Origin: a virus
Lineage: Duplodnaviria; Heunggongvirae; Uroviricota; Caudoviricetes
IMG/VR virus record: IMGVR_UViG_2675903654_000007
Span: 1 to 8,736 of that record
Length of the DNA: 8,736 nucleotides
Strand: one strand, 5' to 3'
The position numbers were made by a program, and so were the translations under genes. Each line of letters starts with the position of its first letter. The stretch's first letter is position 1. The notes under the pieces are model-generated. The model did not search any database and was not told where the DNA came from. It was given only the letters and a program-made list of their open reading frames with translations. Below, in pieces: positions 1 to 8,736 of this stretch.

Positions 1-336
1 GATGATGCGACGGCGGCGGTAAGCCGGGTCCGCCAGATTCTGCGGATCTTCATCCGGCAGGCGACGCAGGGTCATCTGCGGATTCACCTCATGCTTCGGC
101 TTGACATATCCCGGCGTAAATTCAGAGGTGGAGCCGCCACGGGAACGGATAACCTCACCGGAAACAATCGGCGAAACGTACAGCGCCATGTTTACCAGTC
201 CCGGAATTTGTGAGAGATAGACTTTCTCCGTAGTGAAGGGATAGCTCTCACGGAAAAAGAGACGCAGAAACAGCGGATCAAACTTAAATTTCTGCTCATT
301 TGCCGCCAGCAGCTGGGCGGTTGTGTACATCGACAT
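1..336 (-). CDS. E: Major capsid protein gpE-like, N-terminal 112 codons only (3' end beyond window edge)
   Basis: Reverse-complement translation from ATG at 336 reads MSMYTTAQLLAANEQKFKFDPLFLRLFFRESYPFTTEKVYLSQIPGLVNMALYVSP..., matching lambda gpE N-terminus as recalled; frame runs open to position 1. Confidence 0.88.
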   Translation of the reverse strand, partial: MSMYTTAQLLAANEQKFKFDPLFLRLFFRESYPFTTEKVYLSQIPGLVNMALYVSPIVSGEVIRSRGGSTSEFTPGYVKPKHEVNPQMTLRRLPDEDPQNLADPAYRRRRII

Positions 337-391
337 AAAAAAATCCCGTAAAAAAAGCCGCACAGGCGGCCTTTAGTGATGAAGGGTAAAG

Positions 392-724
392 TTAAACGAT
401 GCTGATTGCCGTTCCGGCAAACGCGGTCCGTTTTTTCGTCTCGTCGCTGGCAGCCTCCGGCCAGAGCACATCCTCATAACGGAACGTGCCGGACTTGTAG
501 AACGTCAGCGTGGTGCTGGTCTGGTCAGCATCAACCGCCAGAATGCCAACGGCAGCACCGTCGGTGGTGCCATCCCACGCAACCAGCTTACGGGTGGAGG
601 TATCCAGCATCAGCGGGGTCATTGCAGGCGCTTTCGCACTCAATCCGCCGGGCGCGGTTGCCGTATGTGCCGGGTCACTGTTGCCCAGCGGCTGGTAATG
701 GGTAAAGGTTTCTTTGCTCGTCAT
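392..724 (-). CDS. D: Head decoration protein gpD (110 aa)
   Basis: ORF track 392..730; the second ATG (724) gives [27 protein letters not shown]..., the lambda gpD N-terminus, and is preceded by AAGGGA 5 nt upstream. Confidence 0.92.
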
Positions 725-733
725 AAACATCCC

Positions 734-1339
734 TTACACTGGTGTGTTCAGCAAATCGTTAACGGCATCAGATGCCGGGTTACCTGCAGCCAGCGGTGCC
801 GGTGCCCCCTGCATCAGACGATCCAGCGCAGTGTCACTGCGCGCCTGTGCACTCTGTGGTGCAGCTGCCAGAATGCGGCGGGCCGTTTCCACGGTCATAC
901 CGGGGGTTTCGGCCAGCACGCGTGCCTGTTCTTCGCGTCCGTGAGCCTCCACACAGTTGAGGATCCCCATAATGCGACTGTTTTCTGCCGCAACCGCTGC
1001 GGTGATCTGCGCGTTCACGTCCGGCTGTGCAGCGCTGGCGTTCTCGCCCTCCGTCGCTTGCACCACGCCAGTAACGTCAGCCTGCGAAGCAGTGGCTGAA
1101 ACAGTTGTTGATTGAGTCTCTTTGGTCATTCGCCCTCCTGAGAGACGGGATTTACGTGCATCCAGTGCATCACGCATGACGGTGATCGCATCGGTACTGT
1201 TAACAAGTTCATCAGCCAGTCCGGCATCAATGGCCTCCTGACCGCTGTACACTGCAGCCTCGGTATCCAGCACAGCCTGCACGGACAGGCCGGTATATGC
1301 CGACACCTTCTGTGCAAACATCCGGCGGGTTGCATCCAT
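734..1339 (-). CDS. Nu3: Scaffolding protein Nu3-like, in-frame internal start within the C reading frame, shares the C stop codon
   Basis: ATG at 1339 (MDATRRMFAQKVSAYTGLSVQAVLD...) is in frame with the C C-terminal ORF ending at 734; the position corresponds to the recalled lambda Nu3 start. Choice of internal start is uncertain. Confidence 0.6.
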   Translation of the reverse strand: MDATRRMFAQKVSAYTGLSVQAVLDTEAAVYSGQEAIDAGLADELVNSTDAITVMRDALDARKSRLSGGRMTKETQSTTVSATASQADVTGVVQATEGENASAAQPDVNAQITAAVAAENSRIMGILNCVEAHGREEQARVLAETPGMTVETARRILAAAPQSAQARSDTALDRLMQGAPAPLAAGNPASDAVNDLLNTPV

Positions 1340-1966
1340 CCGGGACTGCAGTGTTTCCCGGACATCATCCGGTAGATGGCTGTAGGGGTTGCCATCCACC
1401 TTATGGCTGCCGCTGTAAATCAGCGTGATTTCCACGCCCTGTTTCTCCAGTGCAGCGCCGTAATTACTGTGAGCCATCATGACGCCGATGGAGCCTGTCC
1501 GGGCGGTCTGCGTGACCAGACGCCGGGAGGCGGCACTGGCAAGCAGCTGACCTGCACTGCAGTTCATGTCGTTGGCCAGCGCCCATACCGGCTTTATGTC
1601 ACGCATACGGGCGATGATGTCAGCGCAGTCAAATAAGCCTGTTGCAGACGGGCGATAATGCCGTTGTAACCGGTCATCCCCGAATACGGCTGCAGCGCTC
1701 GCGTCCGACTGACCAGCGTGCCGGACACCGGCAGCACGGCGATGCCGTTCATGACCTGATAACTGCGGGCCTGTCGTGGTCCGTCATCATCAACGGATAA
1801 CGCCAGCGCCGCGGGTGCCTCTCCGGCAGTCAGGCTGTCGCCGGATACCGCATCCGTCAGGCGGCTGATCCCAAGCTGGCCTGCAAGCGCACAAAAGAAA
1901 ACCCGCGCATAGGCGGGTTCAAGCATCAGCGGCTCATTAAAGGCCATACTGGCAATATGCGGGAGA

Positions 1967-1986
<20 letters not shown>
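734..1986 (-). pseudogene. C: Prohead protease / minor capsid protein gpC, interrupted by a frameshift (N-terminal 130-codon ORF 1594..1986; C-terminal ORF 734..1606 in another frame)
   Basis: GTG at 1986 with AGGAGG upstream gives VTAELRNLPHIASMAFNEPLMLEPAYARVFF... (gpC N-terminus), which runs into a TAA at 1594 after ...IIARLQQA. The gpC sequence resumes in a different frame at RDIKPVWALANDMNCSAGQ (ORF 734..1606). Start overlaps the end of B by 20 nt as in lambda. Confidence 0.8.
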
Positions 1987-5589
<3,603 letters not shown>

Positions 5590-5615
<26 letters not shown>

Positions 5616-6135
5616 TCAGCAACCCCGATATCAGTTCATCCAGCGCGGCTGCTTTGTTCATGGCTTTGATGATATCCCGTTTCAGGAAATCAACATGTCG
5701 GTTTTCCAGTTCCGGAAAACGCCGCTGCACCGACAGGGGGATCCCGTCGAGAATACTGGCAATTTCACCTGCGATCCGCGACAGCACGAAAGTACAGAAT
5801 GCGGTTTCCACCACTTCAGCGGAGTCTCTGGCATTTTTCAGCTCCTGTGCGTCGGCCTGCGCACGCGTAAGTCGATGGCGTTCGTACTCAATAGTCCCTG
5901 GCTGGAGATCTGTCTCGCTGGCCTGTCGCAGTTCTTCAACCTCCCGGCGCAGCTTTTCGTTCTCAATTTCAGCATCCCTTTCGGCATACCATTTTATGAC
6001 GGCGGCAGAGTCATAAAGCACCTCATTACCCTTCCCACCGCCTCGCAGAACGGGCATTCCCTGCTCCTGCCAGTTCTGAATGGTACGGATACTCGCGCCG
6101 AAAATGTCAGCCAGCTGCTTTTTGTTGACTTCCAT
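5590..6135 (-). CDS. Nu1: Terminase small subunit gpNu1 (181 aa)
   Basis: MEVNKKQLADIFGASIRTIQNWQEQGMPVLRGGGKGNEVLYDSAAVIKWYAERD... matches the lambda Nu1 winged-HTH N-terminus; located immediately downstream of cosB. Confidence 0.95.
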
Positions 6136-6159
6136 TGTTCATTCCACGGACAAAAACAG

Positions 6160-6300
6160 AGAAAGGAAACGACAGAGGCCAAAAAGCCCGTTTTCAGCAC
6201 CTGTCGTTTCCTTTCTTTTCAGGGGGTGTTTTAAATAAAAACATTAAGTTACGAAGAAGAAGAACGGAAACGCCTTAAACCGGAAAATTTTCATAAATAG
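6160..6300 (-). promoter_or_regulatory. cosB-like terminase-binding region with three gpNu1-binding R elements and an AT-rich bend segment between them
   Basis: Three copies of CGTTTCC/GGAAACG between cosN and the Nu1 start (6165..6171, 6205..6211 inverted, 6266..6272), with an AT-rich tract between (6220..6260), the arrangement of lambda cosB R1/R2/R3 plus IHF site. Confidence 0.75.
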
Positions 6301-6312
6301 CGAAAACCCGCG

Positions 6313-6324
6313 AGGTCGCCGCCC
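6313..6324. other. cosN: 12-nt cohesive-end sequence (reverse complement of GGGCGGCGACCT) at the joined genome ends
   Basis: Window + strand reads cgcgAGGTCGCCGCCCcgtagc; the reverse complement is ...TACGGGGCGGCGACCTCGCGGGTTTTCGC, the canonical lambda cos junction. Confidence 0.88.
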
Positions 6325-6346
6325 CGTAGCCTGCCGGATCGCCGGA

Positions 6347-6353
6347 AAGGACC
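6347..6353. other. Probable cosQ element on the right-end side of cosN
   Basis: AAGGACC about 23 to 29 nt from the cosN nick position; the exact sequence and position of lambda cosQ are recalled, not verified. Confidence 0.45.
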
Positions 6354-6561
6354 CAATAAGTGATAATAATTATCATTTATATAAATACCATCACACATCC
6401 CACGTACACCATAAAACCACGACAAATAATCAATTTTGTCCAAGTCATGCATTAATTGATCTGTGTCAACTTAACGTAAAGACATCTTAAGACAATACAA
6501 ATCAGCAGCACTGAACACGGAAAAACACAATGTCATCAAAAAATAAAGCTTCCCAAACCAG

Positions 6562-6702
6562 ATGATTAATCAAATCCATATTGCCCTTGAACGTAAGGGA
6601 TCGGGTAATTTTTCGGCATGGGTTATTGAAGCCTGCAGGAGAAGGCTGGCAACAGATGCAAAGCACCTGCGCCCGGCCAGCATGAAAAATAACGAGAAAT
6701 GA
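6562..6702 (+). CDS. Short ORF (46 aa) with ribbon-helix-helix-like helix-loop-helix, probably an N-terminally truncated remnant
   Basis: MINQIHIALERKGSGNFSAWVIEACRRRLATDAKHLRPASMKNNEK; the G-S-G-N turn between two helices is RHH-like (Arc/MetJ/CopG). In-frame upstream codons hit TAA at 6544..6546 and the upstream ATG at 6530 is out of frame. Below the ORF-track length cutoff. Confidence 0.3.
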   Translation: MINQIHIALERKGSGNFSAWVIEACRRRLATDAKHLRPASMKNNEK

Positions 6703-6834
6703 ACGTTCGGTTACAGGAACCGGTAGCTACTGTCTTCTAACAATATTTCATCTTCATATCCGGCGAAACAAGACTTTACCCTGCAGGGATGTACTGAATA
6801 GCAACAGAGTGATAATTAACTTCTGATAAAATAA

Positions 6835-7161
6835 TCAGGGTGCTGAAGGACTAAAGATAAATGTTTTCTTCACGCCTTTACGCGGCTTGTCCTTCTCAAA
6901 TCGCCATTTTGCCATCGCCTTTACAACCTGCTCATCAAACAGATGGTGCGGCTCTGAACGGATAAACTCAATTCGGGTGACAGTACCATCAGCACCAATA
7001 TCAAACTTCACATCAACCCGTCCCTTTATATAATTTGCCGCGGCATAGGCCGGATATTGTGGTAATGCCTTAACCAACTGTCGAGGCATATCTGTTTTAT
7101 GTTGCGTACAGCCCATAACCAAAGAAGACAACAAAATAATTAACGGAAGATTTCTTTTCAT
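6835..7161 (-). CDS. Small lipoprotein (108 aa) carrying a TonB C-terminal domain, with no TonB N-terminal anchor or proline-rich spacer
   Basis: From ATG 7161: MKRNLPLIILLSSLVMGC (signal peptide with lipobox-like VMGC), then ...LPQYPAYAAANYIKGRVDVKFDIGADGTVTRIEFIRSEPHHLFDEQVVKAMAKWRFEKDKP..., matching the TonB_C signature (E. coli TonB: [55 protein letters not shown]). A second ATG at 7176 lacks an RBS. Confidence 0.75.
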   Translation of the reverse strand: MKRNLPLIILLSSLVMGCTQHKTDMPRQLVKALPQYPAYAAANYIKGRVDVKFDIGADGTVTRIEFIRSEPHHLFDEQVVKAMAKWRFEKDKPRKGVKKTFIFSPSAP

Positions 7162-7181
7162 TCTTATTCCCGGCATAGATA

Positions 7182-7224
7182 AGAATAAGTCTTATTCTAA
7201 CAATGCAGCCCTGTCGGTCATCAA
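7182..7224 (-). promoter_or_regulatory. Candidate sigma70 promoter for the TonB_C lipoprotein gene, with an overlapping perfect palindrome (possible operator)
   Basis: On the - strand: -35 TTGATG (7219..7224), 19-nt spacer, extended -10 TGtTAGAAT (7194..7202). Palindrome AGAATAAG-T-CTTATTCT (7182..7198) overlaps the -10 and start region. Sequence-only prediction. Confidence 0.3.
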
Positions 7225-7836
7225 TCCTCTGCTTAATGGCAATGACAATTATCCGACTTAAATCACAAATCAGACACATGACATAACAGAGTTTGCGAGG
7301 TAACACATCGTCCGGTTTCTTCCACCATCGCACCGGACCAGCGACCATGAGGGGACAACGCCGCGCTCCGTTAACACGGTAAACCCCGGTGTGTATCGTT
7401 TTTGATTATCCCCGCACACTCGCGCAGAGGAGTCTCCCTCTCGGGCTGTGGTCTCTGTTGATGCGGGAATACGGCGACGATACAGTGCATAGTTATGTCA
7501 GGCTAAAATGCCTTTATCAAATCTGGGTAACGCAATCTGCCATTGTTGGCTCCGGTTGTGGTGATGATGTCAAGCAAGCCCATCTTGACTATCTCAACTA
7601 GTCGATTCATGACATATGTCACATTTATACCAACCAGATCATTGCGTTGAGTTTACAACTCAATAATTCTTGGTTGGACGTCAAGTTTTGACGGTATTCG
7701 GGTGGCAGTTGATAGCAATCTTGGAACCGTCCACCTAATAGCTGCTTGTGTGGCGTTTAAATTGTGGAGTGCTCGCAACAGAACTTTTCTTTCTTGTTTG
7801 CGAGCGATGTTTAGCAACTTTTAAGAGAGTTAAGTC

Positions 7837-8067
7837 ATGGAGTTTTTGAAAGAGCATCATTTGCCTTCAATAATTTTTGGAATTTTTTCCGCCATTTTTT
7901 GGATTATTTCATGTTTTGCATCTTCCAAAGAACACCCACCAAAAACGGAACAAGGCAGTTTCTCATCACTGGGTTGTTTTAAAGCCATTGAAATACAAAG
8001 TAAATGGAATAAACGGGCTGCTTTTTGCGCAGCGTTAGCTGTTCTTGCTCAAGTATTTAGCTTTTAG
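7837..8067 (+). CDS. Small hydrophobic protein (76 aa), two predicted membrane segments or a lipoprotein signal; accessory gene in the position of lambda bor
   Basis: ATG at 7837 preceded by AGAGAG about 9 nt upstream. MEFLKEHHLPSIIFGIFSAIFWIISCFASSKEHPPKTEQGSFSSLGCFKAIEIQSKWNKRAAFCAALAVLAQVFSF has an N-terminal hydrophobic stretch ending in IISC (lipobox-like), a basic loop and a hydrophobic C-terminus. AT-rich, opposite strand to the late genes, followed by a hairpin terminator. No similarity to Bor recognised. Confidence 0.6.
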   Translation: MEFLKEHHLPSIIFGIFSAIFWIISCFASSKEHPPKTEQGSFSSLGCFKAIEIQSKWNKRAAFCAALAVLAQVFSF

Positions 8068-8084
8068 TTTCAAAAGTGTAAATC

Positions 8085-8120
8085 AGAACCACTCGTATAG
8101 CGGGTGGTTCTCTGTTTTAT
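8085..8120 (+). terminator. Rho-independent terminator downstream of the 76-aa ORF
   Basis: AGAACCACTCG (8085..8095) pairs with CGGGTGGTTCT (8101..8111) around loop TATAG, followed by CTGTTTTATT. Confidence 0.55.
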
Positions 8121-8183
8121 TCGTGTTGCGACTAAAACTAACTAAAATCACGCATATAAAAGATAATGGGAAAATTATCGCTA

Positions 8184-8621
8184 TCATCGAAGGCATTGCG
8201 TCCTAATGTACTCCTGCAAGTAGTTAACCTGCGCGGTTATCCTGTCGATTCCACTTCGGAGACGGTAATAATTGAGTTCAGCATCTGCTGTAAGTCCTGG
8301 GGTTTCTCCATTGCCCATGCCGCTGGCTCCGGTCGTTGACTTTGCACAGGTGGCGGCGACTTGCAGGCGCTTACGCCCAGCAGAAACATCAGCACGGAGA
8401 CTTTCGATAGTCGCATTAGCATCAGCAAGCTCCTTTGTGTATCTGGCGTCAAGTTCTGCTACATCACGTTGCCGCTTCTGCATATCAGCGATGATGGATG
8501 TGGCTTTATCGCGCTGCTCTTTGTAGGCGATGGCGTTATCACGGTAATGATTAACAGCCCATGAAAGGCAGACGATGAGGCAGATGACCAGAACGTAGAT
8601 AATCGCGGTTACTCTGCTCAT
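8184..8621 (-). CDS. Rz: Spanin inner-membrane subunit Rz (i-spanin)
   Basis: From ATG 8621: [39 protein letters not shown]...[23 protein letters not shown]..., an N-terminal TM helix plus coiled coil, similar to lambda Rz. The ATG overlaps the endolysin stop (ATGA). The track start at 8633 is a GTG. Confidence 0.85.
8237..8422 (-). CDS. Rz1: Spanin outer-membrane lipoprotein subunit Rz1 (o-spanin), embedded in the +1 frame of Rz
   Basis: ATG at 8422 preceded by AAGGAG 7 nt upstream; [20 protein letters not shown] (lipobox VSAC) then proline-rich [22 protein letters not shown], the lambda Rz1 architecture, entirely inside Rz. An alternative ATG lies at 8416. Confidence 0.7.
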
Positions 8622-8736
8622 TGTTGCCCCCACAAACAGACTTCACGCTCAATCTCACGGCGAGTCATCAGCCCTTTCCATTGCTTACCGCCAGCGTATG
8701 TCCAGCGCCGTAGCTGATCACATGCGCCTTTGATAT
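8618..8736 (-). CDS. R: Endolysin, lysozyme type (not the lambda transglycosylase type), C-terminal 38 codons only
   Basis: Reverse-complement translation ends ...[36 protein letters not shown], which I recognise as the C-terminus of phage 21 / E. coli RrrD-type lysozymes; lambda R ends differently. 5' end outside window. Confidence 0.8.

Follow-up and report, generated by a model that had tools for sequence, protein, structure and literature searches.

The window analysed here is a stretch of 8,736 nucleotides of viral DNA (IMG/VR record IMGVR_UViG_2675903654_000007, positions 1 to 8,736), which is the late region of a lambda-like E. coli prophage, shown so that the late genes are on the minus strand. 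The order from the left is D', C, B (portal), W, terminase A (3690-5615), Nu1 (5590-6135), cos, an interval of 2 kb, and Rz/Rz1 (8184-8633). Our data indicate that this interval, at about 6136-8183, is very probably the lysis-to-packaging spacer of the prophage, that is, an ordinary variable moron site composed of separately acquired pieces. Judged from sequence comparison, it is a composite of at least five pieces with separate histories and not one acquired segment. An earlier note on this DNA had read 6330-8180 as a single AT-rich island, gained by module exchange at a hotspot beside cos, with genes of benefit to the host.

Joints, relics and cassettes between Rz and cos

The features of the interval are the following (minus is the strand of the late genes).

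6136..6312: cosB region, the terminase and integration host factor (IHF) binding side of cos; AT-rich lambda core DNA.
6313..6324, minus strand: cosN, the 12-base cohesive-end sequence, an exact match to the reverse complement of GGGCGGCGACCT.
6325..6636: diverged homologue of the lambda right end (48502-48169), with cosQ and the 5' part of the DUF3950 gene.
6348..6354, minus strand: cosQ heptamer AGGACCC, an exact match to the reverse complement of lambda GGGTCCT (48473-48479).
6562..6702, plus strand, antisense to the late genes: open reading frame (ORF) of 46 amino acids of the DUF3950 or YlcI/YnfO family (Pfam PF13132, E=8e-19; PHROG 949).
6835..7161, minus strand: TonB-C-terminal-domain lipoprotein of 108 amino acids (Pfam PF03544, E=2.7e-15; TIGR01352).
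7194..7221, minus strand: weak promoter-like site from a consensus scan, ATGACC-16-TAGAAT with a TG upstream, 33 bp before the start codon of the TonB-like gene.
7308..7485, minus strand: conserved non-coding element ('EL') of 178 bp, 59% guanine plus cytosine (GC), candidate for an RNA structure in the late transcript.
7498..7541, minus strand: 44-bp remnant of the 3' end of a rha-family regulator gene, at a mosaic joint.
7524..7836, minus strand: decayed 5' fragment of a Terminase_2-type small terminase gene (terS) of a different packaging module.
7837..8067, plus strand: orf76, 76 amino acids with two hydrophobic helices, of a small family (hypothetical in RefSeq), converging on Rz.
8085..8111, plus strand: strong intrinsic-terminator-like hairpin from a terminator scan, a 12-bp stem followed by CTGTTTTATT, which ends orf76 and lies between the convergent orf76 and Rz.

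Read in the direction of late transcription, the order would be Rz/Rz1, the terminator hairpin, orf76 (antisense), the terS stump, the rha 3' end, the element, the TonB-like gene, DUF3950 (antisense), cosQ, cosN and cosB, and Nu1.

Mosaic joints lie at 6324/6325, at ~6550-6636 and at ~7541. Identity to lambda falls exactly at cosN, from 96.8% for 6136-6324 (lambda 190-1) to 69.5% for 6325-6636, and this fall at 6324/6325 suggests a past exchange with a putative crossover at cosN; the same 6325-6636 is 80% identical to K-12 DLP12. The segment 6550-7541 is 92% identical to Shiga toxin (Stx) 1 phages such as Lys8385Vzw, and the match ends 44 bp inside the 3' end of rha.

The relic of terS has an in-frame stop and a disrupted N-terminus. 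Its alignment at the protein level covers only 7524-7763, and 7836 is its probable upstream end. In a tblastn search, TerS of a Citrobacter sedlakii prophage matched 7524-7763 with 55% identity over 82 amino acids (residues 17-98, E=6e-22), and at the DNA level 7550-8068 is 73.6% identical to positions 5707-6229 of that prophage locus (L009 in our set). The relic region also weakly matches an annotated 'terminase small subunit' in E. coli GN25. A dead pac-type terS stump thus stands beside a functional lambda-type cos and Nu1, which is direct evidence that phages with unlike packaging modules were joined non-homologously. Moreover, the homology to the Citrobacter locus stops at the stop codon of orf76, and hence the terminator hairpin is a separate piece. 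Flanking direct repeats were sought around the interval and none were found, and its sub-segments differ in relatives and frequencies; in both respects it is unlike a genomic island gained as a single unit.

Frequencies of the sub-segments were counted among 5426 complete E. coli genomes. At a coverage of at least 80%, the segment with the TonB-like gene (6640-7540) occurs in 414 genomes (~8%). The segment 7560-8183 with orf76 occurs in only 12, with orf76 itself counted in 11-12, and the whole interval in 11, enteropathogenic E. coli (EPEC) E2348/69 among them.

The variability of the region was surveyed by placing a protein panel on each of 120 IMG/VR contigs chosen for the presence of the element core, so that the sample is biased. 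The order was constant in the late-transcript sense: Rz, slot A, element, slot B, small terminase. Slot A held nothing, Bor (antisense), Rha, KilA-N with a small ORF, or orf76 (antisense), and slot B held nothing, the TonB-like gene, DUF3950 (antisense), or a DNase with HNH. The small terminases were of four unrelated types (Nu1, DUF1441, 933W-type and HK97-like). At 28 of the 120 loci the TonB-like gene was present, always directly after the element, and it pairs with at least the Nu1-type and HK97-like packaging modules; orf76 was present at 4 of the 120. The census confirms that the cassettes are variable, with the element as a fixed landmark between two or more slots.

Morons are defined by GC unlike that of their neighbours and by a promoter and terminator of their own, Bor being the example in lambda (PMC3594210), and they differ among phages 21, 434 and lambda (PMC9119081). 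Both the TonB-like gene and orf76 are present or absent among relatives with otherwise syntenic neighbours, and both differ in GC from the surrounding phage genes. Concomitantly, cosQ, the cos-adjacent DUF3950 gene and the 178-bp element are conserved lambdoid 'core' and not accessory DNA.

The simplest history may be a non-homologous join of two phages. One parent would have been a pac-type phage with orf76 next to its own terS, and the other a cos-type, Stx-like phage with rha, the element, the TonB-like gene, DUF3950 and cos. The lambda-type head genes could then have come in through a subsequent exchange at cosN.

Base composition of the interval

The contrast in composition described by the earlier note is real. 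The GC content of 6330-8180 is 41.8%, against 56.5% for 1-6135 (C, B, W, A and Nu1; binomial z ~12.8), and the Rz part (8184-8736) has 51.7%. A two-boundary maximum-likelihood segmentation placed the low-GC block at ~6100..8295 (42.2% GC, against 56.4% for the rest), which raised the log-likelihood by 66.6. AT-rich codons in both accessory ORFs were likewise borne out, with GC at third codon positions (GC3) of 40.4% for the TonB-like ORF and 27.3% for orf76 (46.8% for DUF3950) against 57-68% for D, C, B, A and Nu1. In overall GC the two genes have 43.1% and 36.4%, and their neighbours 53-60%; on an index like the codon adaptation index, relative to late genes, the accessory ORFs score 0.52-0.62 and the late genes 0.72-0.77. 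The long A/T runs are there as well: runs of at least eight A or T bases are 4-5 times denser in the block (7.6/kb versus 1.6/kb outside), and homopolymers of A or T of at least five bases occur at 5.9/kb versus 2.9/kb. The difference from the flanking late genes in GC and codon usage, which the earlier note had proposed to compute, is large.

The boundaries need correction. The left switch had been put just outside cos; it is at the Nu1 start codon and cosB, ~6100-6150, and cosB, cosN and cosQ are all within the low-GC block, with cosN as a local GC spike and cosB at 34-44% locally (43.4% for 6136..6312). The right switch falls within the final codons of Rz (~8200-8250), not just downstream of that gene. 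In addition, the block is not uniform, since 7308-7485 has 59% GC.

The interval of lambda between Rz and Nu1 has 40.3% GC, against 56.9% for Nu1-C. In five other lambdoid loci (K-12 DLP12, SF-468, an O157 prophage, Stx phage Lys8385Vzw and the Citrobacter prophage) it has 40-49%, against 52-57% for their own packaging and head genes, so that interval GC lies below head-gene GC in all lambdoid cases examined. Because the Rz-to-cos interval of lambda has an equal contrast, the AT-rich phenomenon was already known. A GC-rich left arm and an AT-richer right end have reportedly been known since the lambda sequence of Sanger et al. (1982). Hence low GC alone is no proof of foreign origin: the homologous interval of lambda has 40% GC, and two thirds of the present interval is non-coding or decayed.

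The last point leads to the explanation that competes best with separate acquisition, to which we give somewhat less than an even chance: low GC would be mainly intrinsic, with non-coding DNA (cos flanks that need bendable IHF-type sequence, promoters, terminators) and pseudogene debris drifting to AT, in a region always AT-rich in this lineage. Only 34% of 6136-8183 is coding and 66% is non-coding. The coding part has 41.5% GC and the non-coding part 42.3%, or 39.7% without the GC-rich element. The sides of cosB and cosQ are AT-rich in lambda too, the terS relic has fallen in line with this explanation (42.2% GC versus 50.4% for the matching part of the intact Citrobacter gene), and the lower GC of all lambdoid intervals examined agrees with it. 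However, the accessory genes are equally AT-rich (41.5% GC; GC3 27-40%) under purifying selection, and thus decay alone cannot explain the low GC; moreover, gene content clearly turns over among phages. The intrinsic explanation is complementary to a mosaic origin and does not exclude it. The low GC of this interval has two sources of about equal weight: accessory genes that are AT-rich and under purifying selection, and DNA that is non-coding or in decay (66%).

The 178-bp element and the accessory genes

Element identity is 0.85-0.99 over 93 distinct contexts, and identity of the flanks drops to 0.3-0.5 within a few bases. It is present in lambda (NC_001416, 46864-47047, between bor and lambdap78), in K-12 DLP12 (between bor and ybcV), in phage 21, in 398 phage records with 933W-type Stx phages among them, and in ~1900 of the 5426 E. 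coli genomes (about a third); a divergent copy is in the Citrobacter prophage. With 6640-7540 as query, up to 9 places matched per E. coli genome. In all examined loci it stood between the lysis cassette and the packaging genes, regardless of terminase type. A search for the exact core in one genome per species gave no match, and under so strict a criterion the element is essentially confined to Escherichia, the divergent Citrobacter copy aside. No Rfam 15 family matched 7308-7485 at E<=1, and a literature search by the element sequence found no description of it.

A structure model of six helices was built by hand on 19 diverse copies and replaced a first RNAalifold structure with weak covariation. 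In this model 93.8% of cells are paired, and 14 pairs have double-sided changes, against 2.8 +/- 1.4 in column shuffles (0 of 500 reached this number) and 5-7 in slid controls; the structure was derived from the same sequences on which covariation was tested, and the one Citrobacter copy accounts for much of the covariation. On the late-sense strand G.U pairs outnumber A.C mismatches 56 to 13, and the middle hairpin has been swapped for unrelated hairpins in three lineages. Single-sequence folding was no more stable than that of shuffles (z of -1.2 and -1.3 for the two strands), and this was likewise so for the middle hairpin. Since thermodynamic evidence is nil, the case depends on covariation. 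A structured RNA within the late transcript is likely but unproven. Its structure would mark the boundary between the two cassette slots, and the element could serve in processing or stability, act as an insulator overridden by Q-modified polymerase, or be the precursor of a trans-acting RNA.

Other identities were tried and rejected. As a protein gene, the element has no frame open across all variants, and the PHROG 'spanin' ORF that lies over it in 933W-type phages (locus L131, 1988-2233, phage VT2phi_272) looks spurious. AgvB and AsxR lie 3' of pR' (PMC4104026), and the Pas small RNAs are described near Q, esterase or holin genes or within structural operons; neither set of positions fits that of the element.

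The TonB-like protein starts with a lipoprotein signal peptide (residues 1-18, MKRNLPLIILLSSLVMGC) with the lipobox LVMGC and Thr at +2; across its family the lipobox is conserved as LVMGC, LAVGC or LSVGC, with Thr, Ser or Ala at +2. The part homologous to TonB starts at about residue 24-26. It scores 57 bits against PF03544 (cut-off 24.6) and 57.1 bits against TIGR01352 (cut-off 27.1). With phmmer it was ~40% identical over 79 residues to structures of the C-terminal domain (CTD) of E. coli and Salmonella TonB (E ~1e-16), the YP motif included. In a fold search with an AlphaFold2 model, of low confidence with a mean predicted local distance difference test (pLDDT) of 66.5, the top 14 matches were all TonB CTDs. 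Homologues are in phage 21, where the annotation reads 'TonB C-terminal domain protein', and in a Klebsiella phage (41% identity).

Neither the membrane anchor nor the proline-rich spacer of TonB is found in the protein, which is therefore not a TonB, and NCBIfam models of full-length TonB scored far under their cut-offs. With a lipoprotein signal in place of the ExbB/ExbD-coupling anchor and the spacer, no energy transduction is expected. The protein would be exported and lipid-anchored to the outer membrane, where a free TonB C-terminal domain in the periplasm may compete with host TonB for the Ton boxes of transporters and so blunt TonB-dependent phages and colicins. A role of benefit to the phage (competitor exclusion, progeny protection) would be at least as likely as a benefit to the host. 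No clear terminator 3' of the gene appeared in the terminator scan, PADLOC matched no defence system with any of the three proteins of the interval, and we found no literature on a phage TonB-domain lipoprotein.

A different role for this lipoprotein, as a lysis accessory or spanin-type protein made only late and not a factor of lysogenic conversion or exclusion, appears improbable. Its PHROG 1267 carries the label 'Rz-like spanin' (E=3e-42); the gene always follows shortly after the lysis genes in late-transcript orientation (E. coli phages, phage 21 and the Klebsiella phage); and its product would be an outer-membrane lipoprotein, like Rz1. However, the prophage already has a separate Rz and Rz1, and the protein, as read from its sequence, has no C-terminal hydrophobic or membrane segment such as unimolecular spanins have and no Rz1-like proline-rich region. 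Its sole detectable homology is to TonB C-terminal domains, and the gene is missing from most related phages that share the same lysis genes. The label looks positional, because the spurious ORF over the 178-bp element bears it as well. Both labels, on PHROG 1267 (the TonB-domain lipoprotein) and on PHROG 6954 (the ORF over the non-coding element), look like mislabelling.

Both accessory genes are real, as conserved families with low ratios of nonsynonymous to synonymous substitution (dN/dS): 0.13 for the TonB-like gene against a 70%-identical homologue and 0.18 for orf76 against the Citrobacter copy. The orf76 product would be a small membrane protein. Among 5.8 billion proteins it has 3 close clusters, and ~20 distant relatives of 74-99 amino acids share W22, Q54, N58, A61 and A62 (W...Q-x-K-W-N-x-R-A-A). 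Promoter prediction for orf76 itself was unconvincing.

In the Citrobacter sedlakii prophage (L009, 5411-6228), the orf76 homologue, 75% identical, starts with TTG only 26 bp from the start of the divergent, intact terS, upstream of it. The promoter of this homologue must then sit in the terS coding sequence, and the retention of a terS stump upstream of orf76 in the window may be explained in this way.

The DUF3950 ORF is truncated at its N-terminus relative to the 64-amino-acid versions of lambda and K-12 (compared with K-12 YlcI). A frame disruption has removed the basic N-terminal 18 residues and the entire Pfam domain is kept (6480-6702). In most related loci the gene adjoins cos or terminase. 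In lambda, at ~48150-48350 (minus strand), the YlcI/YnfO (DUF3950) ORF of 64 amino acids stands beside cos, unannotated in NC_001416.

Flanks, weighing of the evidence and likeness to known right ends

The genes on both sides of the interval are as follows.

5590..6135, minus strand: Nu1, small terminase subunit, from the ORF list; 'DNA-packaging protein' in RefSeq at the identical locus; 52.9% GC.
8184..8633, minus strand: Rz (i-spanin) with embedded Rz1 (8237-8452), from the ORF list; 'lysis protein' in RefSeq.

Rz is 96.5% identical to that of an O157 prophage and 75.6% to lambda Rz. Altogether 6136-8736 matches E. coli Z1323CEC0019 at 100% identity and a prophage of EPEC E2348/69 at 99.7%, and the RefSeq annotation of the matching interval lists a DUF3950 protein, a TonB family protein, a hypothetical protein and a lysis protein. 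The cos is of lambda type, with an exact cosN, an exact cosQ ~30 bp to the right-end side and cosB between cosN and Nu1; cosQ is annotated in phage 21 at the equivalent relative place. An imperfect inverted repeat of 26 nucleotides lies in cosB between Nu1 and cosN (6160-6216), and an Rfam scan of 6000-8736 at E<=1 gave only chance microRNA-like matches, which fell on this repeat. Relative to the closest genome, NZ_CP148401, 67 bp are missing from the C (protease/scaffold) gene at 1634-1636 and 78 bp from the portal gene B at 2644-2646, with a single base in place of each missing stretch and no flanking repeats. The deletion in C shifts the frame (ORFs 734-1606 and 1594-2121), and hence this prophage copy would be defective in its head, provided that both deletions are genuine and not artefacts.

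Several points weigh against the picture drawn above. The order of the recombination events would have to be read from present-day relics only. For the TonB-like protein, the structure model is of the low confidence given above, the PHROGs family label names a spanin, and TonB residues Q160 and R166 are replaced (the alignment shows Leu/Tyr and Tyr). Promoter-like sites from the consensus scan are overall no commoner than in shuffles, so that the TonB-like gene and orf76 are only candidate transcription units of their own. Moreover, the idea of a TonB decoy leans on homology and on periplasmic TonB fragments being dominant-negative, as Howard et al. 2001 are reported to have found. We hold as tentative, and as rather unlikely to stand as worded, the proposal that the late transcript of lambdoid phages, with lambda among them, carries the element as an undescribed structured RNA, and that, separately, the TonB-domain lipoprotein is a new exclusion factor acting as a Ton-box decoy.

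That 6330-8180 is one AT-rich island, brought by a single horizontal event to a cos-proximal hotspot with cargo of benefit to the host, is very improbable: the sharp composition contrast and the rarity of the whole interval speak for it, but its parts differ strongly in how widely they occur and in what they are joined to, lambda itself has homologues of both the 310 bp nearest cos and the 178-bp element, flanking direct repeats were not found, and internal gene relics show at least two joins. What the earlier note said of horizontal module exchange survives in part, as the joints, the terS relic, the rha end and the differing gene distributions agree with exchange, though not of one segment. 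Its view of the Rz-to-cos interval as a variable accessory ('moron') region, and the comparison of cassettes that it had called for, are upheld by the 120-locus census with its two or more slots around the element. Host-benefit, non-phage roles do not follow from composition and were an assumption.

As a compositional island the interval changes little, being another AT-rich, fast-turning-over moron region as in lambda. As a rare 'fossil' of illegitimate recombination, its dead terS stump by a working cos and Nu1 can help to understand how lambdoid mosaics arise. More notable are two by-products: the bare TonB C-terminal domain lipoprotein, which is a candidate, open to test, for generally blocking TonB-dependent phages and colicins, and above all the conserved element common to lambda.

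The right end of lambda is among the closest known counterparts of this composite moron site. The lambda Rz-to-cos interval (bor, lambdap78/ybcV-like, lambdap79, the unannotated DUF3950 ORF, cosQ) matches the window in position and GC contrast, and both have cosN, cosQ, a cos-adjacent DUF3950 gene and the 178-bp element. One moron of lambda, bor, codes for an outer-membrane lipoprotein (PMC3594210). None of bor, p78 and p79 is in the window, which, unlike lambda, holds a TonB_C lipoprotein gene in late orientation, orf76 and two gene relics. In phage 21 and PhiR47_2 / ev017, a TonB C-terminal domain gene lies directly downstream of the element and is followed by cos, as in the window. However, their TonB-like protein is only 70% identical to that of the window, and these phages keep bor between Rz and the element and have neither orf76 nor the terS relic.

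For the TonB-like protein itself, the proposed role would be analogous to that of Cor (phi80, N15) and Llp (T5), which are likewise small phage lipoproteins. These act on TonB-dependent outer-membrane transporters (FhuA) and exclude superinfecting phage (PMC11436027; PMC9586334). No sequence relationship of Cor or Llp to the TonB-like protein was found, the latter matching TonB C-terminal domains only. Cor and Llp hit one receptor, whereas the proposed target of the TonB-like protein is the periplasmic Ton box of many transporters. With E. coli TonB it has in common the C-terminal domain and the predicted fold; TonB has an ExbB/ExbD-coupling anchor and a proline-rich spacer, and the phage protein has a lipoprotein signal peptide instead.

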